DNA of 64,000 nt, from NCBI RefSeq assembly GCF_963921235.1, contig NC_086097.1, positions 25,546,001 to 25,610,000 on the forward strand, given 5' to 3'. Under the pieces are notes generated by a model, which did not search any database, was not told the DNA's origin, and saw nothing but the letters and a program-made list of their open reading frames with translations. Positions 24,499-59,995 of this stretch are shown here, one piece after another. This DNA comes from Mobula hypostoma. Its lineage: Eukaryota. Within the stretch, counting starts at the first letter, position 1. Each line of letters starts with the position of its first letter. Position numbers and translations under genes: made by a program.

Positions 24499-24659
24499 CT
24501 CAACCTGTGCAGACAGTTCCATTTTCTGTTTCTCTTTTCTCTCAAGCGATTGTTTCAGCTCTCCTACTTCAGACCGGATAGCATCTTCATTCAGCTGTGC
24601 CCTGAGCTCCAAAATCTGCTTTTCCAGCACCTGCTTCTCAAGCTCGGATCTTGCAGCCA
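24499..24659 (-). CDS. CEP128: Internal coding exon (161 bp, phase 1 to 0), CEP128-like: (V)AARSELEKQVLEKQILELRAQLNEDAIRSEVGELKQSLERKEKQKMELSAQVE
   Basis: Pyrimidine tract plus ttatag acceptor at 24661-24660 and donor GAG|gtaccg at 24499/24498. G from the upstream exon plus TG gives Val. The peptide resembles recalled CEP128 (EKQDLEKQMSDLRVQLN...SELEEVKRCMERKDKEKAHLASQVE). Confidence 0.85.
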
Positions 24660-25664
24660 CTATAACACAAGACATTGAACGTTTAGCAAGGTGGAAAAAT
24701 GAAGGAAGGGGAAAGAGCAAATCAGAATCTGTATCAAAAAACCTTCTCGATATTGGTGACCAATGATCTAGGATTTATTTCTGAAGCAAATCTCTAATTT
24801 ATTTTAAGATTGAAATCTATTATCTATCCTTCAAGCATTTAACCCTTAAAGCAAATGAGTTTGAAATTTGAAGGATCATAAGAGACTATAGATGTTGGAA
24901 TCCAGAGTAACAAGCAACCTGCACGAGGAACTCAGTGGGTTAAACATCTGTGTGGGGGGGGAGGATATGCCAACATATTGGGTCAAAACTTAGTATCAAT
25001 CTTGCCTTATTTCTTGGATGGTGCTGAAAATCTTGAGAATTGTTGGAGGTGCATTGACTTAGGCAAGCAGAAAGTGGTCCAGCACACTCCTGACGTGTGT
25101 CTCATGGATTCTAGACAAGCACTTCAATTACCAAGGTATAGAAGGGCTACAGGCCAAATGTAGATAAATTATACTGTTATAGTTAAACACAATGGTCAGC
25201 ACAGACACAAAGAACTGAAAGGGCCATTTCTGTGCTGTACAACTCTATGACAACGCACACAAAATTCTGAAGAACTCAGCAGGTTAGGCAGCACCCATGA
25301 TGAAGAATAAACAGTCAGTGTTTCAGGCCAAAACCCTTCATCAAGTCACTTCATCAACAGGTTGAGTTTCTCCAGCATTTTGTGCATGCTGTTCTGAATT
25401 TCCAGCATCTGCATAATCTCTTGTGTTTATAACATAGGACACATCATGGTTGGATCCTCCTAGTGAACCATCTCTGAGCCTCTTCCAGTGAAATAGTATT
25501 TAATTTGGAGGCAATCTTCTTTCATTCTTCTAAAATTCACTGAATACAGGTGTAATCCATTCAGTATCTACAGTCCTACAGACAACAATCCTATCATTAC
25601 AAGCAACACACATAAAAGTTGCTGGTGAACGCAGCAGGCCAGGCAGCATCTCTAGGAAGAGATG

Positions 25665-25702
25665 CAGTCGACGTTTCAGGCCGAGACCCTTCGTCAGGAC
25701 TA
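25665..25702 (-). ncRNA. Minimal type I hammerhead ribozyme motif of the Penelope-like element
   Basis: UAGUC-CUGACGA-A-GGGU(CUCG)GCCU-GAAAC-GUC-GACUG: complete core, stem I UAGUC/GACUG, 4-bp stem II and palindromic ACGU in place of stem III. Confidence 0.8.
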
Positions 25703-26303
25703 ACTGAAGGAAGAGTGAGTAAGGGATTTGAAAGTTGGAGGGGGAGGGGGAGATCCAAAATGATAGGAGAGGACAGGAGGGGGAGGGATAGAGCCAAGAG
25801 CCGGACAGGTGATAGGCAAAAGGGGATACGAGAGGATCATGGGACAGGAGGTCCGGGAAGAAAGACAAGGGGGGGGGACCCAGAGGATGGGCAAGGGGTA
25901 TATTCAGAGGGACAGAGGGAGAAAAAGGAGAGTGAGAGAAAGAATGTGTGTATAAAAATAAGTAACAGATGGGGTACGAGGGGGAGGTGAGGCATTAGCG
26001 GAAGTTAGAGAAGTCGATGTTCATGCCATCAGGTTGGAGGCTAACCAGACGGAATATAAGGTGTTGTTCCTCCAACCTGAGTGTGGCTTCATCTTTACAG
26101 TAGAGGAGGCCGTGGATAGACATGTCAGAATGGGAATGGGATGTGGAATTAAAATGTGTGGCCACTGGGAGATCCTGCTTTCTCTGGCGGACAGAGCGTA
26201 GGTGTTCAGCAAAGTGGTCTCCCAGTCTGCGTCGGGTCTCGCCAATATATAAAAGGCCACATCCTCCCTTACCACCATTCAGGGCCCCAAACAGTCCTTC
26301 CAG

Positions 26304-26630
26304 GTGAGGCAACACTTCACCTGTGAGTCGACTGGGGTGATATACTGCGTCCGGTGCTCCCGATGTGGCCTTTTATATATTGGCGAGACCCGACGCAGAC
26401 TGGGAGACCACTTTGCTGAACACCTACGCTCTGTCCGCCAGAGAAAGCAGGATCTCCCAGTGGCCACACATTTTAATTCCACATCCCATTCCCATTCTGA
26501 CATGTCTATCCACGGCCTCCTCTACTGTAAAGATGAAGCCACACTCAGGTTGGAGGAACAACACCTTATGTTCCGTCTGGTTAGCCTCCAACCTGATGGC
26601 ATGAACATCGACTTCTCTAATTTCTGCTAA
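26304..26630 (+). pseudogene. Penelope-type GIY-YIG endonuclease domain (5'-truncated ORF with no RT)
   Basis: GVIYCVRCSRCGLLYIGETRRRL...EH...HF...EQHL...GMN. A partial mirror copy lies at 25995-26263(-). Confidence 0.9.
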
Positions 26631-26929
26631 TGCCCCACCTCCCCCTCGTACCCCATCTGTTACTCATTTTTATACACACATTCTTTCTCTCACTCTCCTT
26701 TTTCTCCCTCTGTCCCTCTGAATATACCCCTTGCCCATCCTCTGGGTCCCCCCCCCCCGCCTCCTTGTCTTTCTTCCTGGACCTCCTGTCCCATGATCCT
26801 CTCGTATCCCTTTTGTCTATCACCTGTCCAGCTCTTGGCTCCATCCCTTCCCCTCCTGTCTTCTCCTATCATTTTGGATCTCTCCCTCCCCCTCCAACTT
26901 TCAAATCCCTTACTCACTCTTCCTTCAGT

Positions 26930-26967
26930 TAGTCCTGACGAAGGGTCTCGGCCTGAAATGTCGATTG
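26930..26967 (+). ncRNA. Minimal hammerhead motif, second copy with CpG-decay substitutions
   Basis: UAGUC-CUGACGA-A-GGGUCUCGGCCU-GAAAU-GUC-GAUUG. Confidence 0.7.
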
Positions 26968-27484
26968 CACCTCTTCCTACAGATGCTGCCTGGCCTGCTG
27001 CGTTCACCAGCAACTTTTATGTGTGTTGCTTGAATTTCCAGCATCTGCAGAATTCCTGTTGTTTGCCTATCATTACAAGAGTCAGTCTGACATTCCCTCT
27101 ACAAAAGGTGCATTTCAACAGGTAAGGAGACCACAAGTTCACACAATACTGCAGGTGTGATTTGACAAAGGCACTGTAAAATTATAACAAAGTGTCCTAA
27201 CACCAAAATCTCGTTGTCTTAAGGCAATGACTATTCATGAGCAGACTCAATAATTAAATGGCAGAACTGTCCTTGTGGTACATGCCTTCAGGCTTTTGTA
27301 TCTTCTACCCAATGGGAGAGGGGAGAGAATGTCTGGGATGGGGGTAGTTTTGATTATGCTGGCTGATTACCTGACGCAGAAAGAAATATTGACAGAGTCT
27401 ATAGAGGGGAGGCTGGTTTGTGTGATGTGTTGAACTGTGTCCACAACTCTCTACAGTTTCTTGTGGTCACATAGCAGCTGCCAT

Positions 27485-30454
27485 ACCATATAACCATACA
27501 ACAATTACAGCACAGAAACAGGCCATCTCGGCCCTTCTAGTCCGTGCCGAATGCTTACTCTCACCTAGTCCCACCAACCTGCACTCAGCCCATAACCCTC
27601 CATTCCTTTCCTGACCATATACCTATCCAATTTTTCTTTAAATGACAACATCGAACCTGCCTCAACCACTCCTGCTGGAAGCTCTTTCCACACAGCCACC
27701 ACTCTCTGAGTAAAGAAGTTCCCCCTCATGTTACCCCTAAACTTTTGCCCTTTAACTCTCAACTCATGTCCTCTTGTTTGAATCTCCCCTACTCTCAATG
27801 GAAAAAGCCTATCCACATCAACTCTATCTATCCCCCCTCATAATTTTAAATACCTCTATCAAGTCCCCCCTCAACCTTCTACGCTCCAAAGAATAAAGAC
27901 CTAACTTGTTCAACCTTTCTCTAACTTAGGTGCTGAAACCCAGGTAACATTCTAGTAAATCTTCTCTGTACTCTCTCTATTTTGTTGACATCTTTCCTAT
28001 AATTTGGTGACCAGAACTGTACACAATACTCCAAATCTGGCCTTACCAATGCCTTGTACAATTTTAACATTACATCCCAACTCCTATACTCAATGCTCTG
28101 ATTTATAAAGGCCAGCATACCAAAAGCTTTCTTCACCACCCTATCCACATGAGATTCCACCTTCAGGACACGATGCAAAGGTATTCCTAGATCCCTCTGT
28201 TCTACCGCATTCTTCAATGCCCTAACATTTACCATGTATGTCCTATTTTGATTAGTCCTACCAAAATGTAGCACCTCACACTTATTAGCATTAAACTCCA
28301 TCTGCCATCTTTCAGCCCACTTTTCTAACTGGCCTAAATCTCTCTGCAAGCTTTGAAAACCTGCTTCATTATCCACAACGCCACCTATCTTAGTATCATC
28401 TGCATACTTACTCATCCAATTTACCACCCCATCATCCAGATCGTTAATGTATATGACAAACAACATTGGACTCAGTACAGTCCCTGAGGTACACCACTAG
28501 TCACCAGCCTCCAACCTGACAAACAGTTATCCACCACTACTCTCTGGCATCTCCCATGCAACCACTGTTGAATCCATTTTACTACTTCAATATTATTACC
28601 TAACGATTGAAACTTCCTAACTAACCTTCCGTGTGGAACCTTGTCAAAGGTCTTACTGAAGTCCATATAGACAACATCCACTGCTTTGCTCTCATGAACT
28701 TTCCTAGTAACCTCTTCAAAAAATTCAGTAAGATTTGTCAAACATGACCTTCCACGCACAGATCAATGTTGACTGTCCTAATCAGACCCTGTCTATCCAG
28801 ATAATTATATATAACATCACTAAGAATACTTTCCATTAATTCATCCACCACTGACGTCAAACTTACAGGCCGATAATTGCTAGGTTTACTCTTAGAACCC
28901 TTTTTAAACAATGGAACAATATGAGCAATACGCCAATCCTCCGGCACCATCCCCATTCCCAATGACATTTGAAATATTTCTGTCAGAGCCCCTGCTATTT
29001 CTACACTAACTTCCCTCAAGGTCCTAATGAATATCCTGTCAGGACCCGGAGACTTATCCACTTTTATATTCCTTAAAAGCACCAGTATTTTCTCTTCTTA
29101 AATCATCATAGTTTCCATAACTCCCCTACTTGTTTCCTTTACCTTACACAATTCACTATCCTTCTCCTTAGTGAATACCGAAGAAAAGAAATTGTTCAAA
29201 ATCTCCCCCATCTCTTTTGGCTCCGCACATAGCCGGCCACTCTGATTTTCTAAGGGACCAATTTTATCCCTCACTATCCTTTTGCTATTAATATAACTGT
29301 AGAAACCCTTTGGATTTATTTTCACCTTACTTGCCAAAGCAACCTCGTATCTTCTTTTAGCTTTCCTAATTTCTTTCTTGAGATTCTTTTTATTCTTTAT
29401 ATTCCTCAAGCACCTCATTTACTCCATGCTGCCTATATTTATTGTAGATATCTCTCTTTTTCCGAACCAAGTTTCCAATATCCCTTGAAAACTATGGCTT
29501 TCTCAAACTTTTAACCTTTCCTTTCAACCTAACAGGAACATAAAGATTCTGTACCCTCAAAATTTCACCTTTAAATGACCTCCATTTCTCTATTACACCC
29601 TTCCCATAAAACAAATTGTCCCAATCCACTCCTTCTAAATCCTTTCACATCTCCTCAAAGTTAGCCTTTCTCCAATCAAAAACCTCAACCCTGGGTCCAG
29701 ACCTATCATTCTCCATAATTACATTGAAACTAATGGCATTGTGATCGCTGGACCCAAACTGCTCCCCAACACAAACCTCTGTCACCTGACCTATCTCATT
29801 CCCTAACAGGAGATCCAACACTGCCCCTTCTCTAGTTCGTACCTCTATGTATTGCTACAAAAAACTATCCTGCACACATTTTACAAACTCCAAACCATCC
29901 AGCCCTTTTACGGTATGGGCTTCCCAGTCTATGTGTAGAAAATTAAAATCTCCCACAATCACAACCTTGTGCTTACTACAAATATCTGCTATCTCCTTAC
30001 AAATTTGCTCCTCCAATTCTCACTCTCCATTAGGTGGTCTATAATACACCCCTATAAGTGCAACTACACCTTTCCCATTCCTCAATTCCACCCAAATAGC
30101 CTCCCTAGACGAGCCATCTAATCTATCCTGCCAGAGCACCGCTGTAATATTTTCTCTCACAAGCAATGCAACACTTCCCCCTCTTGTCCCTCCGATTCTA
30201 TCGCACCTGAAGCAACGAAATCCAGGAATATTCAGTTGCCAATCACACCCCTCCTGCAACCATGTTTCACTAATAGCTACAACATCATATTTCCAGGTAT
30301 CAATCCATGCTCTAAGCTCATCCACCTTTCTTACAATGCTCCTAGCATTAAAATAAATGCATTTAAGAAATTCTCCACCTCTTACTCTCTGTTTATCACT
30401 AACGGTGCAAACAACTTTACTCTCTTCTTTTTCTTCCTTCTCCCCTATATCCAT
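27485..30454 (-). mobile_element. Relatively young CR1 LINE with near-complete ORF2 (APE endonuclease and RT) broken by stops/frameshifts, inserted in a Rex1-type fragment
   Basis: CIYFNARSI...ISETWL...GVYYRPPN, NYRPVSLTS, MDFSKTFDKVPH, SGVPQG and KYADDTK, with an (accatata)-type 3' tail. Confidence 0.95.
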
Positions 30455-30661
30455 TCCTACACCCTTGTTCCCAAGTAGTTATGCTACGAGACAGAATGGT
30501 TTCTATGGTGCATCAATTAAATTGGTTAGGGTCGACAGGACATGCCAAATGGGATTCCACCTGTCACATCCCAAATATCTAACTGTAAGTTGACCCTTCT
30601 GTGAGAGAGAATACTGTAATAGATGCTGGGCAGACTTGAGAATATAAAATGGGATTGATAA

Positions 30662-33076: not shown

Positions 33077-36000
33077 CTTCTTTTTCTTTTTCAATCTTTT
33101 TATTAATATCAAAATGTTAAACATAACATTGTATTAATACAAAACTATTGGGATTACACTGTTAATAATTAACATATATAAATATAAACTCAATTGGCAC
33201 ACAGGTATTAAACCTCCCAAAATCGTACAAAATACGAATATAATATACAAAAAACAGAAATAGCATGAAAAAGGAAAAAAAACAAAAGAAACTAATATAA
33301 ACAATGCTAACCAATTAAACTAAGGAAAAGAAAAAGACATGGGCTGTTATGTAACGTCAAAAAGAACCATTAGTGTCATTGACTCCGCTCCTCTCTGCAT
33401 ATATTTAAAAGAAATAGAACAAGTTTGGAAAAGGTCAAATTACATCATATGGAAGTGTTGAATAAATGGCCTCCAAGTCTTTTCAAACTTAATAGAAGGA
33501 TCATAAATGACACTTCTGATTTTCTCTAAATTTAAACATAACATAGTTTGAGAGAACCAATGAAATGGGGTGGGAGGATTGATCTCTTTCCAAATCAGCA
33601 AAATGGATCTTCTAGCCATTAATGTAAGAAATGCAATCATCAACAAGCTGAAGAGGTTAAATGATTTGGTTCTATCATTGGTAAACCAAAAATTGCGGTA
33701 ATAGGGTAAGGTTGTAAATCAATACTCAGAACAGTTGAAATAATATCAAAGATATCTTTCCAGTGTTTTTTCAAAAAAGGACAGGACCAAAACATATGAG
33801 TTAAAGAAGCTATCTCAGAGTGACATCTACCACATACAGGATTTATATGGGAGTAATAACATGTTAATATATCCATAGACATATGAGCCCTGTGCACTAC
33901 TTTAAACTGTATCAACGCATGTTTAGCACATATAGAGGATGAGTTAACTAATTGAAGAATTTTTTCCCATTGTTCAATAGGTAAAGTAAGCTTAAGTTCC
34001 CTTTCTTAATCATTCTTAATTTTATTAGATACATCTGGACGTATTTTCATAATTATATTATAAATAGTTGCTATCATACCTTTCTGAAAAGGATTTAAAT
34101 TAAAAACATTTTCCAAAATACCCGTTGGATATAGATTCAGGAAGGTAGGAAGAACAGTATTTAAAAAGTTTCTAATCTGTAAATATCTAAAGAAATGGGA
34201 TCTAGGCAACTTATATTTATTAGATAATTGTTCAAAGGACATGAAACAATTATCCAAAAATAGATCACGAAATCATAATGTATCTTTGGTTTTCCAAGCC
34301 AAATAGACTTGACTCATAATAGACGGTTGAAAAAAAAATTAGATATAATAGGACTTGCTAGAATAAATTGATTCAACCCAAAAAATTTTCGAAATTAAAA
34401 CCATATTCGTAAAGTATCTTTACTTATTGGATTATCCATTTGTTTATGCAATTTAGAAAGAGCAAAGGGAAGCAAAGTCCCTAAGATAGAACCCAGTGAA
34501 AGCCCTTGTACAGACTTACCTTCAAGATTTAGCCAATGTGGACTTGAAATTATGTCCAAGTCCCATGACCAAAATTTTAAATATTGAGTATTAATTGCCC
34601 AGTAGTAAAATCTAAAATTCGGCAATGCCAAACTACCCTTCTTTTTAGACTTTTGTAAATATCTTTTACCTAACCTAGGATTTTTACTCTGCCATATATA
34701 TGAAGAAATTTTAGAATCAACATTATCAAAAAAGGATCTCCGAATAAAAATTGGCACCACTTGAAATAAATACAAGAATTTAAGTAAAATAATCATCTTG
34801 ATAGCATTGATCCGAACTATCAATGACAGAGACTTTGGTGGCCATTTAGTAAACAGATGTTGAATCTGATCAATTAAAGGTAAAAAAAATTAGCCTTACA
34901 TAAATCCTTGTGCTTTTTTGTAATTTTAACCCCTAAATAAGTAAAATAGTTGGTAACCAGTCTAAATGGTAAACATCCATAAATTGGAACCTGCATATTT
35001 AAGGGAAACAGTTCACTCTTATTAAGGTTCAACTTATAACCAGAAAAATTACTAAACTGATCCAACAAGGATAAAACTGCGGGAATGGATTTCTCATGAT
35101 TAGAAATATATAAAAACAAATCGTCTGCATGTAATGATAACTTATGTATCTTATTCCCATGGGTAATACCAAGGATATTAGGTGAATCTCGAATAGCAAT
35201 TGCTAAAGGTTCTAGAGCGATATCAAATAGTAATGGATTAAGAGGACATCCCTACCTAGTACCCCAAAATAAGCGAAAAAAGGGAGATCTTTGATTATTA
35301 GTAAAAACCGAAGCTACAGGGGTATGATATAACAATTTAATCCAAGATATAAATATCGGACTAAAACTAAATTTCTCAAGCACACTAAATAGATATGGCC
35401 ATTCAACTCTGTCAAAAGCTTTCTCAGCATCTAATGAAATGACACATTCTGGAGTACTAAGTGAAGGAGTACAAACAATATTCATTAATCTCCTAATATT
35501 AAAAGATGAATAACAATTTTTAATAAATCCAGTTTGGTCCACAGAGATAATTTGAGGTAATGCCTTCTCTAACCTAGTTGCTAATATTTTAGAAAAAATC
35601 TTAGAATCTACATTCAGCAGGGATATTGGTCTATATGATGCACAATCAGTAGGATCTTTATTTTTTTTAGGATTAAAGAAATAGAAGCTCCATAAAATGA
35701 TTGTGGTAATTTACTTGATCTAATTGCTTCTTTGTAATGTAAACTCATGAAATCGGAAGAGGAACAAAAATTCAGAAAGGAACCAGAAGTCACGACACTG
35801 CAGACATTTTTGTAGTTCTAAGTCAGCCCAATTGAAAAAATTAATAGTAAAAATCCCCCCACCCTCCACCCACAAAGACTCGAGACTAAGCCAGAAAAAG
35901 GCCAGAGAATAAACTACCACTAAATCTACCCCCCGTTTCACCAGAAGGCGACTCCAAAGATATATGTTTAAAAGAGAACCACCCGAAATCCAAAGAAAAT

Positions 36001-38476
36001 TAAACACTGTACTATAGCAATCTTCATATTGTGGTTTCTAAAATGAGACAAAAGAGTAAGCGCCAATACATATTATTAGTCATTTACAAACATAAAAAAT
36101 TTAAAATGGCACTTCAAAAGAAAGAAAGGAATTATGGGACGAGGAACATGAAAAAATGGCGCAGTAAAAAAACAAAAGATATTATGAATGAAGGAAAACA
36201 AACCGCCGTGTTAATTATACGAAGCAAAAAAAACACAAGATATTCCTCCAGTGTAATAGAAATTCACCATCAAATCATTAATAACATTGTCAAAAATCAA
36301 ATAGTTAGAAATTAGCAAAATAAGAAGAAATGAATTCATCAACAAAAAAAACTTTAATTGAAATGTGAAAAATACCTACACTACTAACCAAAAACGAAAA
36401 TCTTGAACTTATAAAGGTCCATCTTCATAAGATAATTATAGGCTTTAAAAAGAAGCACGTAAAAACAGAGCCAATACTGCGAGAGCCATACATTAACTAG
36501 AGCGAAGTATCCGTGGCAGTTGGATAGTGCTCATCCAAGAAACCTTGAACAGCACTTGTGGAATAAAAGATACGGCGTGGAACTTCCGGAGGAGAAATTC
36601 TTAAACGCGCAGGGTACAATAAAGCTGGTCTGAGACCTTTTTAGTAGCATTCCGACATCAGAGATTTGAAAGCCAACCGCTCCTTCATCACTTCTGGACT
36701 AAAATTCTCCACGAGACGGAATTCATAATCTTGAAATTTAATCATAACTTGTTGATGGGCAATTCAAATGAGATGCTCTTTAACGGAAATGGATAACCAC
36801 TGGTCTCGGTTTAGACCCCGGGTCTGGTTTTCGATGAAATATACAGTGAACGCGATCAAGCAATGGAGGGCCATCCGGAAATTCAGAGCTAAATGCATCC
36901 TTTAAAAGTTGAGAAAAGAATTTTAAAGGGTCCCCTTCCTCGACATCCTCAGGGAGACCAATTATACTTAAGTTCTATCTTCTGGATCGATTTTCAAGAT
37001 CAATAATCTTGGATTTAAAATTCTCCAGCTGTTTAGACCTCGAAGACGATTGTTGTTCCAAACTCTCAATTTTCAGATCTCTCTTCCGAGTTTCGTCGTT
37101 CAATTCTACAATTTTGCTTTGTTGTTGTTTAACTTCGTAACCAAGAGATTCCAAACAATCCTTAATTGACTTTAAGTCTTCTTTAAAACTTTGATGTTGT
37201 TCATCAAATTTTATACTTAGAAGATTCAACAATGTATCATAAGTTAATTCAGTTTGCTTAGGTTCACCTTTTTTCTTCCCGTTACAGTCGAAATCTTTCC
37301 CATTTTTAGGATCTCACCCTTTACCATATAACCATATAACAATTACAGCATGGAAACAGGCCATCTCGGCCCTTCTAGTCCGTGCCAAATGCTTACTCTC
37401 ACCTAGTCCCACCGACCTGCACTCAGCCCATAACCCTCCATTCCTTTCCTGTCCATATTGCTATCCAATTTAACTTTAAATGACAACATCGAACCTGCCT
37501 CAACTACTTCTGCTGGAAGTTCGTTCCACACAGCTACCACTCCCTGAGGAAAGAAGTTCCCCCTCATGTTACTCTTAAACTTTTGCCCTTTAATTCTCAA
37601 CTCATGTCCTCTTGTTTGAATCTCCCCCACTCTCAATGGAAAAAGCCTATCCACGTCAACTCTATCTAACCCCCACATAATTTTAAACAACTCTATCAAG
37701 TCCCCCCTCAGCCTTCTACGCTCCAAAGAATAAAGACCTAACTTGTTCAACCTTTCTCTGTAACTTAGGAGATGAAACCCAGGTAACATTCTAGTAAATC
37801 TTCTCTGTACTCTCTCTATTTTGTTGACATCTTTCCTATAATTCGGTAACCAGAACTGTACACAATACTCCAAATTTGGCCTTACCAATGCCTTGTACAA
37901 TTTCAACATTACATCCCAACTCCTATACTCAATGCTCTGATTTATAAAGGCCAGCATACCAAAAGCTTTCTTCACCACCCTATCCACATGAGATTCCACC
38001 TTCAGGGAACTATGCAACATTATTCCTAGATCACTCTGTTCTACTGCATTATTCAATGCCCTACCATTTACCATGTATGTCCTATTTTGATTAGTCCAAC
38101 CAAAATGTAGCACCTCACACTTATCAGCATTAAACTCCAACTGCCATCTTTCAGACCACTCTTCTAACTGGCCTAAATCTCTCTGCAAGCTTTGAAAACC
38201 TACTTCATTATCCACAACTCCACCTATCTTAATATCATCTGCATACTTACTAATCCAATTTACCACCCCATCATCCAGATAATTTAGACCTTGTACTTAT
38301 TTCTTTGCTCATTTCTTCAAATTTCACAGTCAAAGCTCAAGGATAATTCAATAGTATAAATCTTTTAGTGTAGGTAAAAATAAATTAAATAAGGGTGATC
38401 ATAGGTTAAAAAAAAAAGTCACGGTAATGGAGAGAAGCAAAAATTAACCTCACTCCATGAGCGCCTCCTGAAGAAT
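33077..38476 (-). mobile_element. L1-clade LINE: 5' UTR, ORF1 (38312 to 36497, interrupted), long spacer, ORF2 lacking its N-terminus, A-rich tail
   Basis: ORF1 shows a coiled coil, LENRSRRxNL and LLYPARLRI. ORF2 shows YRPISLLN, DQTGFIK, SLDAEKAFDRVEW, GTR.GCPL and a C-terminal CGRC..ASLTHMFWSCP. 14-bp TSD tcggctttaaagtc at 33063-33076 and 38477-38490. Confidence 0.92.
37324..38282 (-). mobile_element. 5'-truncated young CR1 inserted in L1 ORF1
   Basis: Open ORF 37403-38266 (KYADD...GRWD), very similar to 27485-28445. ttta is duplicated at 37320-37323 and 38283-38286. Confidence 0.93.
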
Positions 38477-38504
38477 TCGGCTTTAAAGTCATAAAACATT
38501 TCAA

Positions 38505-39830
38505 GACACGTGCTCAGAAGCGCAACATGCCTGAACAACTGGTGCCCTGTCGCACTCATCTCAATTATAAGCAAATGCTTTGAGAAGCTGGTCAAGGATT
38601 ACATCTGCAGCATGCTACCACCCAAACTGAACCCCCTACAATTCACCTACCAACACAACAGGTCGACAGATGACACAATAGCTACTGCTCTAAATACTGC
38701 CCTTACACATCTGGAGAAGAAGGATGCTTATGTGAGAATGCTGTTCTTGGACTGCAGTTCAGCATTCAACACCATAATTCCATCCAGGCTTGACAAGAAG
38801 CTCAGAGACCTCAGCCTTGACCCTGCCTTCTGACTTCCTGTCAGATCGCCGGCAGGTGGTAAGAGTGGGCTCCCTCACCTCCACCCCTCTGACTCTCAAT
38901 ACAGGAGCCTCTCAGGGCTGTGTACTAAATCACCTCCTTTACTCCCTATATACTCATGACTGTGTCGCCACCCACAGCCCTAATCTGCTAATTAAATTTG
39001 CCGACAACACTACATTGATTGGCCTAATTTCGAACAATAACAAGGTGGCCTACAGGGAAGAAGTCATCTCTCTGACACAGTGGTGTCATGAAAACAACCT
39101 CTCCCTCAATGTTGCAAAAACAAAGGAGCTGGTTGCGGATTACAGGAGGAATAGAGAAAGGCTAACCCCACGTGACATCAATGGATCTGGAGTTCAGAGG
39201 ATAAACAGCTTTAAGTACCTCAGCATCTACATCACCGAGAACCTCACGTGGTCTGTACACACCAGCTGTGTGGTGAAAAAGGCACAACAGCGCCTCTTTC
39301 ACCTCAGACGGTTGAGGAAGTTTGGTATGGGCCCCCAAATCCTAAGAACTTTCTACAGGGGCACAATTGACAGCATCCTGACTGGCTGCACCACTGCCTG
39401 GTTTGGGAACTGTAACTCCCCTAATCGCAGGACTCTGCAGAGAGTGGTGCAGACAGCTCAGCACATCTGTAGTTCTGAACTTCCCATGATTCAGAACATT
39501 TACAAAGACAGGTGTGTGAAAAGGGCCCATAGGATCACCGGGGAACCGAGTCACCCCAACCACAATCTATTCCAGGTGCTATCATCCAGGAAACAGTACT
39601 GCAGCATAAAAGCCAGGACCAACAGGCTCCAGGACAGCTTCTTCCACCAGGCCATCAGACTGATTAAGTCACGCTGATTTGAATGTATTTCTATGTTACA
39701 TTGACTGTTCTATTTATTATAAGTTACTATAATTGCACATTACACATTTAGACGGAGACGTATCATACAGATTTTTACTCCTCATGTACGCGAAGGATGT
39801 AAGAAATAAAGTCAATTCAATTCAATTCAC
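38505..39830 (+). mobile_element. Rex1/Babar LINE, 5'-truncated RT
   Basis: PVALISIISKCFEKLV, LDCSSAFNTI, GASQGCVL, KFADNTT and KKAQQRLFHLRRL, then AATAAA and a (caatt)n tail. Confidence 0.9.
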
Positions 39831-45566: not shown

Positions 45567-45693
45567 CTGCTTGAGTCAGTCTGTCATCCTCATCTTTTTC
45601 ACGATAACCTTTCTGCTGTGATTGCAAGAGGCTGTGCTGCAAAGTTACTCGTTCCTGTTCAGTCTTCAACAGTTGATCGCGCAAATCATCTAT
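45567..45693 (-). CDS. CEP128: Internal coding exon (127 bp, phase 0 to 1) of a centrosomal coiled-coil protein, CEP128-like: IDDLRDQLLKTEQERVTLQHSLLQSQQKGYREKDEDDRLTQA
   Basis: Minus-strand acceptor tttag|ATA at 45694/45693 and donor GCAG|gtgagt at 45567/45566. The peptide is heptad-like and non-TE, and resembles the vertebrate CEP128 segment as I recall it (LRTQLTKAEGDRKGLQHQVSQ...). Its phase matches the next exon. Confidence 0.8.
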
Positions 45694-47776: not shown

Positions 47777-48869
47777 AACATACATTTACAAAGACTTGAC
47801 AAACTACCAATGTGCAAAAGACAAACTGTACAAATAACTAATACTGAGAACATGCATTATAGAATCCTGGAAAGTGAGTGCAGATTGTGGAATCAGTTCA
47901 GAGTTGAGGTGAGTGAATGAAGTTATCCACGCTGGTTCGGGAATCTGATGGTGGAGGGTCATAATTGTTTCTGAGTTTGGTGGTGGGACCCAAGGCTCCT
48001 GTACCTCCTTCCCGATGATAGTATTGAGAAGAGGGCACCGTCTGGATGGTAGGAGCCCCTGATGATGGATACGGTTTTCTTTTACTTTTTCTTCCTTCAT
48101 ATTATTTTGATCAGATAGTGCAAAGTTTCTCAAAGCACTTCACCAGTGTTATTGAACAAAAGCTGCCATCGAGCTAATTGGGCAGAAATTAGTATAGTTT
48201 AGTCAAAGAGTAATGTTTTAAGAAATGTCTTAAAGCAAGTAAAGTTCAGGGAGATAACTTTAGGCCTTAAGAAACATAGGGCTGATATTTGGGAAAATTA
48301 TGGGATGAGAAAATGTAGATCAGGGGAACACATTAGTGTAGAGATTAGTATAACACAATTACAGTACCAGTGACTGGGGCTCAGTTTGAACACTGCCTAT
48401 AAGGAGCTTGTACGTTCTCCCCCACGACTATGTGGGTTCCCTCCAGGTTTTCCATCTTCCTCCCACATTTCAAAGATGTACAGGCTAGTCGATGAATTGA
48501 TCACCTGGGTGTTAATGGGTGGCACAAGCTAGCTGGGCTGAAGGAACCTGTTACCATACCATATCTATTAAAATTAATCATGCATGAGGTAGAGGTCAGA
48601 TTTGCTGATTGCAATTTCCAAGAAGCTGAAGCGCTGTTAGTAACTACAGAGCCACAAAAAAGCTAAGAGATGGAGGGCCATGAAAACAAAGGCGTAAATT
48701 TGGACTTTGAGTTTAGGGTCTGGAGTACATCAGTGAGTACAAGCCAAAAAGTGAATTAAGCATGGTTTGAGTGACTTTTTGAATAACCCCTTGCTGCAAT
48801 GGTAAACTGACTTTTCAGCTTCAGTGAAGGAGGTGGTGTGGTGGCAGCTTCAAGTGGAACAAGTGCTAC

Positions 48870-49600
48870 AACTCCTCCTTTACTACCATTCAGGGACCCA
48901 ACAGTCCTTCCAGGTGAAGCGACACTTCACCTGTGAGTCTCTTGGGGTCATCTACTGTATCTGGTGCTCACGGTGTGGCCTTTTGTCTATTGGTGACACC
49001 CAACATAGATTGGGAGACTGCATCGCCAAGCACCTACACTCCGTCCACCAGAAAAAGCAGGATTTCCCAGTGGCCACTCATTTAAATTCCATTTCCCATT
49101 CTGACATATCAATCCTTGGCCTCCTCTATTGTCACAATGAGGCCACACTCAGGTGGGAGAAGCAGCACCTTATATTCTGTTTGGGTAGCCTCCAACCTGA
49201 TGACATGAACATTGATACTCTAACTTCCAGTACTACCCCCACCCCACCCCCTTCACCATCCCCATCCCCTTTTCCCTCTCTCACCTTGCCTGCCCATCAC
49301 CCCTCTCTCTGGTGCTCTTCCCCCTTTTCTTTCTTCCATGGCCTTCTGTCCTCTCCTGTCAGATGCCCCCTTCTCCAGCTCTGTACTTCTTTCACAAATC
49401 AAAACTTCCCAGTTCTTCATTTCACCCCTCCCGGTTTCACCTTTCACCTTATGTTTTTCCCTCCTCTTCCCCCACATTCTAACTCTGACTCATCTTTTTT
49501 TCACCAGTCCTGATAAAGGGTCTCGGCCCAAAATGTCAACTGTACTTTTTTCCATAGATGCTGCCTGGTCTGCTGAGTTCCTCGAGCATTTTGTGTGACT
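48870..49600 (+). mobile_element. Penelope-like element 3' part with GIY-YIG domain and degenerate hammerhead (49505-49542)
   Basis: GVIYCIWCSRCGLLSIGDT...HLIFCLGSLQPDDMNID, and cagtcctgataaagggtctcggcccaaaatgtcaactg. Confidence 0.85.
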
Positions 49601-52870: not shown

Positions 52871-52973
52871 AAACACTAAGAATGCTACCGCAGAGAACGC
52901 TTTAAGATCCCAGATGACTTCTCCAGCAACGCAGTGGAACCATTGTAATAAGAACAGACAACTCATATGTTGA

Positions 52974-53189
52974 CACATCAAAGTTGTTGGTGAACGCAGC
53001 AGGCCAGGCAGCATCTCTAGGAAGAGGTACAGTCGATGTTTCAGGCCAAGACCCTTCGTCAGAACTCAGCCCGAAACGTCGACTGTACCTCTTCCTAGAG
53101 ATGCTGCCTGGCCTGTTGCGTTCACCAGCAACTTTGATGTGTGTGGCTTGAATTTCCAGTATCTTCAGAATTCCTGTTGGTTGTGTGTG
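52974..53189. mobile_element. Miniature foldback Penelope-like insertion with a hammerhead motif (53030-53066, minus)
   Basis: Inverted arms about 52974-53046 and 53068-53144. TSD aactcatatgttga (52960-52973) and aactcatacgttga (53190-53203). Confidence 0.88.
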
Positions 53190-53989: not shown

Positions 53990-55585
53990 CAGGTTTCCCC
54001 CGCCATCCGAAGGTAGAGAATTCCTATGAAACAGTTCGTAAGCCGAAATGTCATAAAGCAAAGTAGCAATTACCATTTATTTGTATGGGAAAATTTTGTG
54101 TGCATTCGCAGACCCAAAAATAACTTACCAAATCATGCCAAATAACACATAAAACCTAAATTAACAGTAACATATAGTAAAAGCAGGAATGATATGATAA
54201 ATACACAGCCTATATAAAGTAGAAATACTTTTCCACAATCATTACTGCACTGTTCTCTGTAGCAAAAATCTCATGCAAGCGCCGTCGGCAGAAAATCTCA
54301 CGCAAGTGCTGTTGGCAAAAACACGACGCAAGCGCTGTCCAGTAACCTTTAAGCTATGAAGCTGCCAAATCATACCAAATATCACATAAAAATACACAGC
54401 CTATATAAAGTAGAAATAATGTATGTACAGTGTAGTATCACTTACCGGAATTGGTTCAGCGACAAGCACACTGATGATGGTGTGTTAGACTGAGTCGTCG
54501 CAGGTTGGGTGGTGCAGTGGCCACCCCCCGCCCCTCCAGGCAGCCGACCGATACCGATTCGCAAAGCATGCAGGGGTGCAGCGGTAGCCAGGAGGCACAC
54601 AGCACATCTTTAAGAGAAAAGCCGAAATAAACATGCTAATTAATTAGGTGCCACCTGGCACGTAATTGTTGGCCCAGATCAGTGCCGATTTCCGATTGCG
54701 TCATCTCTGATCTGGGCCGACAATTACGTGTCGGGTGGCACCTAATTAATTAATATGTTTATTTTGGTTTTTTTCTTAAAGATGTGCTGTGTGCCTCCCG
54801 ACTACCGCTGCATTCTCCGCAAATCGGTATCTGTCCACGGCCTGGGTGTTGGGGTGGTGGGACACTGGGGTGTCATCTCATCGTCTGTTTCCATTACAGC
54901 AGGCAGCTCATCTTCTCCTGTGACTGCCCACCTCGATATCGAAGGTCAAGGTTCGTCGTCTGCTGTGGCTGATGTGGAAGGCTTGCTTGACTGCTGAGCC
55001 TCGCGCATTTTTCTATCATACAGTTCTTTGTAAGGACTCAAACCATCTTGCAAATATCCCCTAAACCATTGCAGCGAAAATCTCACGCAGTTGCTTCACG
55101 TTCAATTCGCTGCTGCATTCGGTTTCGATTGTTATCCTTTCTTCTTCCAATTGCATCAGCTCTTCATCTATCAGTTCTTGGTCATGGGATGCCAAAACCT
55201 CTTCAACATCATGTTCATCAGCTTCCACAAGCCAAACTCACTTTGTCCTTGCTTCGTTCACCATGATCGAAACGCTTAATTATGTCTAGTTTTACGCTAA
55301 GTGTAACACTCTTACGAGCTCTTTTAGGCTTTTCCAATACCATAGAACTCATCTTGCAAACGGCTGCTCACAGGCACGTGTTTAAGCAATGCTGGCTAGA
55401 ACGCAGTTCCTGGGGAGAGCGGTTGCTCGGGGCGCTGATTTTTTCACGCGCTGATTTTTTATCGCGCGCTGCTTTTTTCTCGTAACAGTAAAAACATCTT
55501 CTGAAAGCGAAAACAGGGAACTAATGCAGGTCTTCGTAACAGTGAGGTTTCGTAAAGTGAACATTCAAAAAGCGGGGGACACCTG
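53990..55585 (-). mobile_element. Internally deleted Tigger/pogo DNA transposon inserted in a CR1 3' fragment (53665-55690, plus)
   Basis: TIRs CAGGTTTCCCCCGC and GCGGGGGACACCTG with TA TSD. ATG at 55352 gives MSSMVLEKPKRARKSVTLSVKLDIIKRFDHGER (CENP-B-like N-terminus), followed closely by the acidic C-terminus DVEEVLASHDQELIDEELMQLEEE. No DDE core. Confidence 0.88.
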
Positions 55586-55694: not shown

Positions 55695-57362
55695 GAATCA
55701 GAATCAGGTTTATTATCACCGGTACACACATCAAAGTTGCTGGTGAACGCAGCAGGCCAGGCAGCATCTCTTTGGGTCTCAGCCCAAAACGTCGACTGTA
55801 CCTCTTCCTAGAGATGCTGCCTGGCCTGCTGCATTCACCAGCAACTTTGATGTGTGTTGCTTGAATTTCCAGCATCTGCAGAATTCCTCGTGTTTACGTT
55901 ATTATCAACTGCATGTAACGTGAAATTTGTTAACTTAGCAGCAGCAGTTCATTGCAATACATAATCTAGCAGAGAAAAAATAATAATAAATAAAATAGAA
56001 AAATTAATAATAAATCAATTATGTATATTGAATAGATCTTTTTTTAAAAACGTCCAAAAACAGAAATACTGTATATTTAAAAAAGTGAGGTAGTGTCCAA
56101 GATTCAACGTCCATTTAGGAATTGGATGGCAGAGGAGAAGAAGCTGTTCCTGAATTGCTGAGTGTGTGCCTTCAGGCTTCTGTATCTCCTACCTGATGGT
56201 AACAGTGAGAAAAGGGCATGGTACAACTATAGAAGTTTTTGAGTGTATTTGTTGACATACTAAATCTCTTCAAACTCCAAATGAAGTATAGTTGCTGTCT
56301 TGCCTTCTTTATAACTACATCAATATGTTCTGAGCAGGTTAGATCCTCAGAGATCTTGACACCCAGGAACTTGAAGCTGCTCACTCTCTCCACTTCTGAT
56401 CCCTCTATGAGGATTGGTATGTGCTCCTTCATCTTACCCTTCCTGAAGTCCACAATCAGCTCTTCCGTCTTACTGACATTGAGTGCCAGGTTGTTGCTGT
56501 GACACCATTCTACTAGTAGGTATATCTCACTCCTGTACGCCCTCTCATCACCACCTGAGATTCTACCAGCAATGGTTGTATCGTCAGCAAATTTATAGAT
56601 GGTATTTGAGCTATGCCTAGCCACACAGTCACATGTATATAGGGAGTAGAGCAGTGGGCTAAGCACACACTCCTGAGGTGCACCAGTGTTGATCGTCAAT
56701 GAGAGGGATATGTTATCACCATTCCACACAGATTGTGGTCTTCCAGTTAGGAAGTCGAGGATCCAGTTGCAGAGGGAGGTACAGAGGTCCAGGTTCTGCA
56801 ACTTTTCAATCAGGATTGTGGGAATGATGGTATTAAATGCTGAGCTATAATCGATGAACAGCATCCTGACGTAGGTGTTTGTGCTGTCCAGGTGGTCTAA
56901 AGCCATGTGGAGAGCTATTGAGATGGCATTTGCCGTTGACCTATTGTGACGACAGGCAAATTGCAATGGGTCCAGGTCCTTGCTGAGCCAGGAGTTCAGT
57001 CTAGTCATGACCAACCCCTCAAGGCATTTCATCACTGTCAATGTGAGTGCTATCAGGCAATAGTCATTAAGGCAGCCCACATTATTCTTCTTAGGCACTG
57101 GTATAATTGTTGCCTTTTTGAAACAAGTGGGAACTTCTGCCTGTAGCAGTGAGAGGTTAAGAATGTCCTTGTATATTCGCGCTAGTTGGTTGGCACAGGT
57201 TTTCAGAGCCTTACCAGGTACTCCATCAGGACCTTTCGCCTTGGGAGGGTTCACTCTCTTTAAAGACAGTTTAACATCGGCCTCTGAGACAGAGATCACA
57301 GGCTCATCAGGTGCAGCAGGGATCTTCACAGCTGTAGTTGTGTTTTCCCTTTCAAAGCGTGC
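55695..57362 (-). mobile_element. Rex1/Babar LINE with an open RT core and an internal 3' deletion
   Basis: ORF 56172-57476 contains KAKGPDGVP, FKKATIIPVPKK, FIDYSSAFNTI, GAPQECVLSP and KFADDTT. The ORF N-terminus runs into adjacent CR1 sequence. Confidence 0.92.
55725..55898. mobile_element. Miniature foldback Penelope-like insertion in the tail of a Rex1 element
   Basis: Inverted arms about 55724-55771 and 55810-55857. Imperfect TSD ttattatcaccggta (55710-55724) and ttattatcaactgca (55899-55913). Confidence 0.8.
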
Positions 57363-59179
57363 AGAATCGATGGGCTGAATGGCCGTTCTGCTTCCATCTC
57401 TTGTAATCCTAGGATGCATGTCCATAACACCATAAGACATAGGGGCAGAGTTATATCCAGCATTAACCCTCAGCATTATATTCTTGTTTTTATATTCTCA
57501 TCATCTCAAAATGAATACTAACATTGCATTTGTCTTCCTTTCCACCAACTCAATATGCAAATTAACTTTTAGGGAATGCTGCACAAGCATTTCCAAGACC
57601 TTTTGCACCTCTGTTTTCTTTTGAATTTTCTTCCCATTTAGAAAATAGCATACACTATTATTCATTCTACCGAAATGCATTACTGTACACTTCCTTACAC
57701 TATATCTGACACTTCTTTGCCCATTCTCCCAATCTGTTTTAGACCTTCTGCAGGCTCCCAGCTTCCTCAGCACTATCTGTCTCTCCATCTATTTTTGTAT
57801 CATCCACAAAGCCATCAATCATGTCATCCAAATCACTGATATATAATATGAAGAGAAGTGGCCTTAACACCAATACCCGTGGAACACCACTAGTTACTGC
57901 CAGCTAACCAGGGAGGGGTCCTTTATTCCCATTCTTTGGCCTCCCACCAGTCAGACAATGTTCCATCTATGCTAGTATCTTTCCTGTAATACCCATGGGC
58001 TCTTATCTTGTTAAGCAGCCTCATGTGTAGCACCTTGTTAAAGGCCTTCTGAAAATTTCAGTAAACAACACTCACTTACTCTCCTTTGTCTACTCTGCCT
58101 GTCACTTCCTCAAATAATTCCAACATATTTGTCAGACAAGATTTCCCCTTAAGGAAACCACACTGACTTTGGCCTATTTTATCATGTGTTTCCCAAGTAT
58201 CCTGATATCTCATCCTTAATAGTGGATTCCAACATCTTTCCAACCGCTGAAGTCAGGCTAACTGGCCTATGATTTCCTTTCTTCTGCCTTCCTCTCTTGT
58301 TTAAGAGTGGAGCAACATTTTCAACTTTCCAGTTTTCTGGAACCATTCCAGAATGTAGCAATTCTTGAAATATCACTACTACTGCCTCCACAATCTCTTC
58401 AGCTATCTCTTTCAGAACCCTGAGATGTACTCCATCTGATCCAGGTGCCTTATCTACATTCAGACCTTTCAGCTTCCAAAGCACCTTCTCCTTAGAAATA
58501 GCAACTATATTCACTTCTGCTCTCTGACACTCTCAAATATCTGGCATATAGCTAGTGTTTTCCCACTGTGAAGACTGACGCAAAATACTTATTAAGTTTG
58601 TCCACCATTTCTTTGTCTTCCATTACTACCTCTCCAGCATCATTTTCCAGTGGTCCGAAATACACTCACGTCTCTCTTTTACTCTTTATATATCTGAAAA
58701 AACTTTTTTGGTATCCTCCGACATTATTAGCTAGATTATCTTCATATTTCATCTTTTCTCTCCTTATGGCTTTTTTAGTTGCCTTCTGTCGGTTTTTAAA
58801 AGCCTCTCAATCATTTATCTTCCCACTAATTTTTAGAATATTATATGCCCTCTCTTTTGCTTCTATTCTGTCTTTGACTTCCCGTGTCAGACAAGATTGC
58901 AACATCCTCCCTTTAGGATACTTCTTCATCTTTGGGATGTATCTATCTTGCATCTTTCGAATTGCTCCCAGAAACTCCCGCCTTTGCTGTTTTGCCGTCA
59001 TCCCTGCTAGTGTACCCTTTCAATCAACTCTGTAATTCCCTTTACTCCAATGTAATACCAATACATTTGACTTTAGCTTTTCTCTCTCAAACTGTAGAGT
59101 GAATTAATAATTATTATTATTATTGTTATTATTAATTCATCCTTCAGTTTATTATTATTGATAATGATAAGAATTATTA

Positions 59180-59995
59180 TGGATATATTAATAATGGAAG
59201 ACATCCACACGATCTGAGCAGTCTAAATGTTGACAAGGAAGCATCAAACACCTAGCTCAGAATTGGAGATCTCTTCCCAGAAACAGAGGGACCAGGTGGC
59301 TAACACAAAAAAAATTATCAAAAATACATAATAAAAGACAAGATGATAAGTGCAGAAAATACATGGAGAAACCAGGAACAATCCAACACATTACAGGATC
59401 TTGCAGCAGTTTAACCCAATCTGAATACTTACACAAGCACAATCAAGTGGCAAACATTAATCATCAAAATCTTGCTTTAAAACACAAACTCATAAAAGGC
59501 ACCATACCTTACTATAAATACAAGCCTGGCAAGCCTGGCTCAGTTTTAGAGTCAGACTTCTACACACTTTATTACAACCAAATCATTATTACAGATAGAA
59601 CAATCCATAATAACTATCTGGATACATTACAGGATAAACAAGAAAGAACAACTTACTTAACAGATATAACCATTCCAAACACACAAAACATGCAGAAATC
59701 AATAAGTGAAAAACATCAGAAATATACTGAATTAGAAGAGGAAATTGAAAGACTGTGTAATGTGAACCGGGTATACATTGTCCCGATCGTAATAAGTACA
59801 ACTGGCATCACCCCAAATTCACTAAACAACAGCTTTGAACAATTAGGCTTTCACAGCAGTATTTATGTAAATCTCCAGAAAGCCACAATACTAAACACCA
59901 CTAGAATAGTCCAAAAGTTCCTTGCAATTGAGAAATGAGTGTGCTTGTCTATGTCTGTACCTCAGATTTTAACAGCTTGAGCTGAGAAAAATAAA
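59180..59995 (+). mobile_element. R4/Dong-clade non-LTR retrotransposon 3' fragment (CCHC knuckle and restriction-like endonuclease)
   Basis: CRK...TIQHITGSCSSL...HNQVA...TDRTIHNN(YLD)...TDITIP...KHQKYTEL...VPIVISTTG, flanked by TAA/TTA-rich tracts. Confidence 0.8.

Follow-up and report, generated by a model that had tools for sequence, protein, structure and literature searches.

Does a hammerhead ribozyme lodged in an intron cut the transcript of its host gene? The question is raised by a minimal type I hammerhead with an intact core at 25665..25702, on the minus strand of the 64-kb stretch of DNA analysed here (the window) and sense to the gene CEP128. Our reading, held at a probability of roughly 85%, is that this is a real minimal hammerhead, but a passive copy within a dead, young head-to-head insertion, and that the host transcript most likely remains uncut. 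The motif is of a known kind, as minimal hammerheads, their weak, dimer-only activity and their opposite-strand pairs have already been published (PMC4209133, PMC11167929, PMC8557442); the points of note are the copy number and the self-masking geometry of the insertion.

Read from 25702 to 25665 on the minus strand, the motif comprises a stem I of 5 bp with an outer U.G pair, a CUGACGA core, one extra A, a stem II of 4 bp with a 4-nt loop, and GAAA. The palindrome ACGU occupies the position of helix III, which is absent, and the predicted cut lies between 25670 and 25669, 3' of the triplet GUC. The CUGANGA/GAAA/NUH core, the bulged A, the 5-bp stem I and the ACGU in place of stem III listed in an earlier note on this DNA can all be read back on the minus strand. 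Pair 10.1-11.1, not flagged there, is G.U here, the canonical pair being G-C; it is found in the window copy and its subfamily, with G-C in the other genomic copies listed, and is by this comparison a subfamily variant. A structure-based descriptor of minimal hammerheads matched the window three times (25697 on the minus strand, 26935 on the plus strand and 53062 on the minus strand), whereas 30 Markov controls averaged 0.03 matches, and a 26-nt hammerhead pattern matched four times, against none in 100 shuffles; the motif is therefore beyond chance. Rfam hammerhead models were unmatched both at the gathering score over the whole window and at E<=10 over 25400-27200, where two weak matches were set aside as unrelated families.

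The earlier suggestion that this is a Penelope-type hammerhead was borne out, since the motif sits in an arm of a Penelope-like insertion, at a position that is pseudo-LTR in a complete genomic copy (L037). Similarly to the minimal hammerheads of Penelope elements, as set out in the available text of Cervera and De la Pena (2014; PMC4209133), it is of type I with a short helix I (4-5 bp), has an extra base between positions 9 and 10.1, displays the CUGANGA and GAAA core together with A15.1-U16.1 and H17, is palindromic at 15.2-16.2, lacks helix III and is located in a pseudo-LTR. A further likeness is that those hammerheads mostly occur as single truncated copies, with some opposite-strand pairs 100-700 bp apart. 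Here, helix II has 4 bp, G10.1.U11.1 replaces a highly conserved G-C (a trait outside the descriptor; PMC4209133), and the ray family is very uniform.

The host gene was identified from the exon downstream of the insertion (24499..24659, minus strand). Two Mobula proteins that bear the name CEP128 match its peptide at 98% identity, a sawfish protein at 87% and a skate protein at 81% (four matches listed of 127 candidates), which places the host, a ray, among the kin of devil rays; exon-only contigs in runs X1 and X3 match the exon as well. Consecutive exon mapping places the preceding exon at 45567..45693 on the same strand, which gives a host intron of about 20.9 kb in a gene spanning about 647 kb of the minus strand. 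Both exons map to the strand of the motif, and the sense orientation to a CEP128-like pre-mRNA put forward in the earlier note holds. So does the distance of about 1 kb to the 24660 acceptor: the acceptor AG is at 24661-24660, and the cut site lies 1,009 nt upstream.

The hammerhead belongs to one arm of an inverted repeat of 1,462 bp (25604-27065), a head-to-head, 5'-truncated Penelope-like insertion whose arms are 96-99% complementary around an unpaired centre of 98 nt (26264-26361). The left arm (25604..26263, minus strand) is the inverted, 5'-truncated 3' end of the element, with the end of the endonuclease (EN) coding region, a pyrimidine-rich 3' UTR and the hammerhead, but no tail. The right arm (26264..27065, plus strand), which includes the unpaired centre, is the 5'-truncated 3' end of the same element. 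It carries a C-terminal GIY-YIG endonuclease fragment with CCHH (26264..26630, plus strand; PF01541, E=8e-4, 20 bits, under the curated cut-off of 22.6), a dead remnant devoid of a start and of reverse transcriptase (RT), whose frame follows RT in the longer copies L012 and L030. Farther along the right arm is the second hammerhead (26930..26967, plus strand), antisense to CEP128, whose complement would mask the first copy in the pre-mRNA; two C>T changes break its palindrome (26959) and weaken its stem I (26965). A 34-nt tail (27032..27065, plus strand) is found at the right end only, and identical 14-bp target-site duplications flank the whole (25590..25603 and 27066..27079, plus strand). 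In the element 3' UTR (25704..25995, minus strand), 79% of the 292 nt are pyrimidines and AG occurs once, two bases ahead of helix I; the stretch looks like a putative 3' splice site. The 3' UTR tract of L037 is similar, and no strong donor was seen in the UTR; in Penelope of Drosophila virilis, an intron is reported to end at helix I (PMC4209133).

The insertion is young, judging from its intact duplication and from an apparent empty site in organism F. One contig of that organism (depth 5.9) matches 25404-25603, the match breaking off exactly where the duplication ends and leaving 210 letters over, which suggests, from this single contig, a site without the insertion. The arms differ by 17 substitutions and two gaps, several of them at positions polymorphic in the family, and the differences are unevenly spread: the arms are identical over the 208 bp adjoining the centre (26056-26263 and 26362-26569) and diverge by about 4% farther out. 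In the identical zone they have in common a rare variant present in one of 36 other copies, and identity near the centre may be explained by two templates followed by local copying or gene conversion. The arms also gave the impression of a C>T strand bias, which was considered as a deaminase signature and rejected, as private changes in 37 copies are alike on this point (per 1,000, C>T 7.1 vs. G>A 8.9 outside CpG, and 24.7 vs. 29.3 in CpG).

Longer genomic copies reveal the nature of the element. In L012 and L030, RT and GIY-YIG lie in one frame of more than 500 aa (RVT_1, E 4e-5 and 7e-6; GIY-YIG, E 4e-4 and 2e-4; all below curated Pfam cut-offs), and the CCHH motif, as defined in PMC8557442 with its two cysteines between GIY and YIG, was read from translations. 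A CX4CxxC linker lies between RT and EN in L012, L030, L037 and L044, 5' of the point at which the window copy is truncated. A CX2-5CxxC linker is assigned to Neptune and Nematis, and not to Penelope and Poseidon, in the available text of PMC8557442; by this linker motif, the family is probably a Neptune-type EN+ Penelope-like element. L037 is a whole pLTR-ORF-pLTR unit, in which the hammerhead is present in both repeats flanking the RT-EN region, 3.5 kb apart. Like the EN+ Neptune-type elements described in that paper, the ray element has RT followed by a C-terminal GIY-YIG with CCHH and a CX4CxxC linker, as well as 5' truncation, an inverted 5' copy, a one-sided tail (30-40 bp in the reference) and a variable target-site duplication (PMC8557442). 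Pseudo-LTR tandem, inverted 5'-truncated copy, one-sided tail and duplication, all traits of EN+ Penelope-like elements, were found; unlike in the reference, there is no microsatellite target at the CEP128 site.

How such an insertion came to be head-to-head may be understood from its layout. Each arm can be read as first-strand cDNA synthesized from one end of the duplication towards the centre, which is consistent with both strands of a staggered cut having served as primers, at two start sites separated by the length of one tail. Reverse transcription would have proceeded inward from the two 3' ends of the cut, and the resulting truncated cDNAs would then have been joined. For the green anole element Poseidon, priming of both target strands, with two start sites one tail-length apart, was reported in vitro (Frangieh 2024; PMC11167929). 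The two elements also have in common a hammerhead shortly upstream of the element 3' end and tail, and insertions that derive from uncleaved RNA (PMC11167929). Poseidon belongs to another clade, lacks the linker finger present in the ray element, and has a reading frame that starts inside stem II (PMC11167929), whereas the long frame of L037 begins 172 nt after the motif's 5' flank.

Head-to-head copies are not peculiar to CEP128. An inverted arm was found in six of the 20 loci extended to 7 kb, which were the best matches to the long arm, and three of these six head-to-head copies have target-site duplications of 13, 15 and 17 bp. In the remaining L032, L035 and L041, the best shared flank words were internal repeats or chance (the left end of L035 having been set too far out). 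L035 and L041, both on C36, have about 2.4 kb in common at 97% and the same right flank, and are probably a segmental duplication rather than independent insertions. The first 100 exact matches listed include at least 13 neighbours within 3 kb, of which 11 are head-to-head, one tail-to-tail and one tandem, where about 0.8 per orientation would be expected by chance. Two short head-to-head elements were noticed in the window itself, one of the same family at 52973-53183, in the next CEP128 intron upstream, with a second sense hammerhead of intact core and broken palindrome (53037-53062, minus strand), and one at 55724-55895, in which the truncation of both arms falls within the hammerhead or downstream of it. 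Between the insertion and the exon there is an old, short inverted copy (25251-25428). Older material includes an EN-plus-UTR fragment at 48806-49597, with about 80% identity to the young family, and decayed hammerhead relics with 7-11 mismatches at 1056, 17567, 21637, 32716, 40757 and 49505 (plus strand) and 25349 (minus strand).

The family is very large. Exact matches to the 38-mer number 29,805 in the 3.48-Gb genome (14,868 and 14,937 by strand) and matches to a relaxed 34-nt pattern 60,104 (30,005 and 30,099), with none for reversed-pattern controls; about 60,000 core-intact hammerheads amount to one per 58 kb. Xenopus and coelacanth were reported to have 9,000 and 4,000, respectively (PMC4209133), although the counting methods differ. 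Used as a genome query, the right arm gave 6,563 first-look candidates, and the 39 other copies scored are 96-97% identical to it. Being one of 29,805 identical copies, the motif needs no special explanation for its location in CEP128, in whose 647 kb the density predicts about 11 relaxed-pattern copies, 5-6 of them sense. We found no literature description naming this family in rays in the sources covered, which excluded Repbase and most subscription journals; the species lists in the supplement of PMC4209133, like preprint supplements, may cover cartilaginous fishes. Animal non-LTR retrozymes likewise have hammerheads derived from Penelope pseudo-LTRs and are reported in one cartilaginous fish in the available text of the preprint (bioRxiv 10.64898/2026.07.22.740005), but they are tandem non-coding arrays whose units each carry a hammerhead on the same strand, whereas the CEP128 insertion consists of inverted fragments of a coding end, and each strand has a single hammerhead.

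These numbers bear on the idea that the host has domesticated the motif as an intronic ribozyme, as with the amniote RECK hammerhead. Similarly to the amniote hammerheads of RECK and other genes, it is an intronic type I motif in a host gene; it is also sense and intact, and such cases do exist (PMC6155905). The amniote motifs, as described in the accessible text, are canonical and conserved across species (PMC6155905), whereas the CEP128 motif is young, multicopy and without helix III. With 29,804 other identical copies, an intact duplication, the apparent empty site in organism F (one contig) and no Rfam match, domestication is hardly plausible. Conservation argues in the same direction: among 36 close copies, the motif scores 0.983, exactly as the dead coding region does, with flanks at 0.970 and 0.962. 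Stem variants are of the wobble-to-Watson-Crick type only, and no compensatory change stands out. In 3,004 copies with a changed closing base of stem I, the partner nearly always stays G among the 100 listed (judged by eye), and the few T-A cases in that set fit CpG decay. The copies are too young for a covariation signal, and selection is therefore invisible either way. A P1/P0 ratio of 0.72 was set aside, as its pattern excludes known subfamily variants. In about 17 of the same 100 listed copies, again by eye, a fold-back-like junction was seen just 5' of the catalytic core; it could have formed by the joining of two arms whose truncation fell on the 5' edge of the hammerhead, in which case a truncation hot spot other than the cleavage site is possible.

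We favour instead a passive origin. The motif would be the hammerhead usual in the pseudo-LTR of a young EN+ Penelope-like element amplified to very high copy number; it would have been carried into the CEP128 intron within the dead head-to-head insertion, and its role, whatever it is, would belong to the full-length tandem RNA of the element and not to this copy. During transcription of CEP128, the complementary arm would emerge first and zip up the hammerhead arm. In the full fold, 36 of the 38 motif nucleotides are paired to 26930-26967; the penalty for imposing stems I and II is 69.4 kcal/mol. Minus-strand transcription makes the complementary arm first, and folds of the growing transcript have 553 of 562 left-arm nucleotides already paired when the first base of the hammerhead emerges. 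Because of the head-to-head geometry, this masking order holds on either strand. When the complementary arm is left out, the pyrimidine tract of the element pairs with the catalytic core, and a hairpin of the upstream tract and core is favoured by 11.3 kcal/mol, with stem probabilities of about 0.001. Nearest-neighbour folding ignores the tertiary energy of hammerheads, and this arm-free result is therefore weaker evidence; the model likewise ignores nuclear helicases, hnRNPs and ADAR, proteins that could open the hairpin.

If unzipped, a lone minimal hammerhead without helix III would still need a partner, and probably the element's own protein too. No intact same-strand partner was found nearby: the one other sense descriptor match in the 64-kb window lies at a distance of 27 kb and has a broken palindrome. 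Dimer energies (-11.5 kcal/mol for the active form, -30.3 for the best dimer and -22.0 for two monomers) leave the catalytic core unscored and deserve little weight. Published monomers are reported not to cleave, and dimers to cleave little (PMC4209133); the Poseidon hammerhead cuts only with the element protein, and RNA-seq ends are absent at its site in the available account (PMC11167929).

Genomic copies offer an independent record of what happens at the scissile bond. Nested counts on one anchor fall from 92,216 to 82,554 and then to 72,789 copies, so that the 7 nt containing the cut site are crossed by 89.5% of anchored copies and the following 7 nt by 88.2%. The 5' ends of genomic copies show no accumulation at the cut site, at a resolution where an excess of 1-2% could hide in a 7-nt interval. 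Reverse transcription passed the scissile bond in each intact copy of the genome, and the counts suggest that insertions seldom or never use cleaved RNA as their template.

It has to be weighed against this that the hammerhead, by itself, with a partner in trans or with the element protein, could cleave CEP128 pre-mRNA to a measurable extent, some 1 kb short of the acceptor, and lower or alter CEP128 output. The core is intact and the orientation sense, protein-assisted cleavage is known for a related element (PMC11167929), and element sequence is heavily covered, as contigs only, in runs guessed to be RNA. Standing against these points are the 69 kcal/mol of sequestration by an arm made beforehand, the G.U at 10.1-11.1, the want of a nearby partner and the fact that 5' ends of genomic copies are not in excess at the cut. 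Moreover, in runs X1 and X3, likewise guessed to be RNA, contigs of 3,055 and 866 nt match the exon only, without differences, as spliced mRNA would, in animals that may or may not carry the insertion. Introns cut by ribozymes may often be spliced all the same while their exons stay tethered to the polymerase. Appreciable cutting of CEP128 pre-mRNA is therefore very unlikely, given the masking, the local hairpin, the missing partner, the published inactivity and the read-through copies, and the cleavage about 1 kb before the acceptor proposed in the earlier note finds no support, with 36 of 38 nucleotides sequestered and no nearby dimer partner. Its own reservation, that the surrounding hairpin might sequester the motif, appears from the folding to be the likelier case, 36 nucleotides being paired to the upstream arm. 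According to these models, this copy most likely leaves the host transcript uncut to any meaningful degree. The counterpoint is that the core is fully intact, silence being our inference from models, and that with about 60,000 copies one could imagine a partner acting in trans through the ACGU palindrome.

The insertion could also affect CEP128 by means other than catalysis, either as a double-stranded hairpin subject to editing, retention or innate sensing, or through a strong cryptic 3' splice site immediately ahead of helix I. The hairpin is substantial, with about 660 bp at about 96% complementarity ending 943 nt from the acceptor, and the AG at 25705-25704 is preceded by a pyrimidine fraction of 0.89 over the last 19 nt, vs. 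0.63 at the true acceptor. This AG is nevertheless located inside the paired arm, and none of the 15 joints listed, of 213, fits its use. As for editing, the differences seen in runs guessed to be RNA are also found in large runs, all from pooled genomic copies, and editing is unreadable there. We consider an effect of this sort highly improbable.

Other repeats were noticed elsewhere in the window. A 106-bp inverted repeat, 91% complementary around a 24-nt spacer, lies at 54577-54812. LINE remnants with reverse-transcriptase-like frames, which we take to be CR1/L2-like and L1-like, were noticed at 1924-2619, 27921-30478, 33640-35710, 37403-39677 and 56172-57497, mostly on the CEP128-sense strand. 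A 234-aa open stretch (59234-59938, plus strand), for which Pfam gave no convincing match, presumably resembles the C-terminal nuclease region of a LINE with a restriction-like endonuclease. The cumulative GC skew falls steadily across the window.

The in vivo role of Penelope hammerheads has been called unclear (PMC8557442). One speculation, which we hold to be unlikely, is that about 60,000 intact hammerheads suffice for activation in trans, through the ACGU palindrome or the element protein, and that sense intronic copies cut host pre-mRNAs; head-to-head insertion would then be a self-silencing form, tolerated while lone sense copies are purged, and pairing between the pyrimidine tract and the core a possible second switch. 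If true, a complement transcribed before the ribozyme on either strand would make head-to-head copies tolerable in introns, and splicing at the AG before helix I would remove the inhibitory pyrimidine hairpin. The single locus matters little, being a dead transposon end in an intron. The family, however, is a useful resource: its near-identical intact copies give statistical power on two points, a possible depletion of sense copies in introns and a possible escape of head-to-head copies from it, which would amount to an indirect in vivo test of hammerhead activity.
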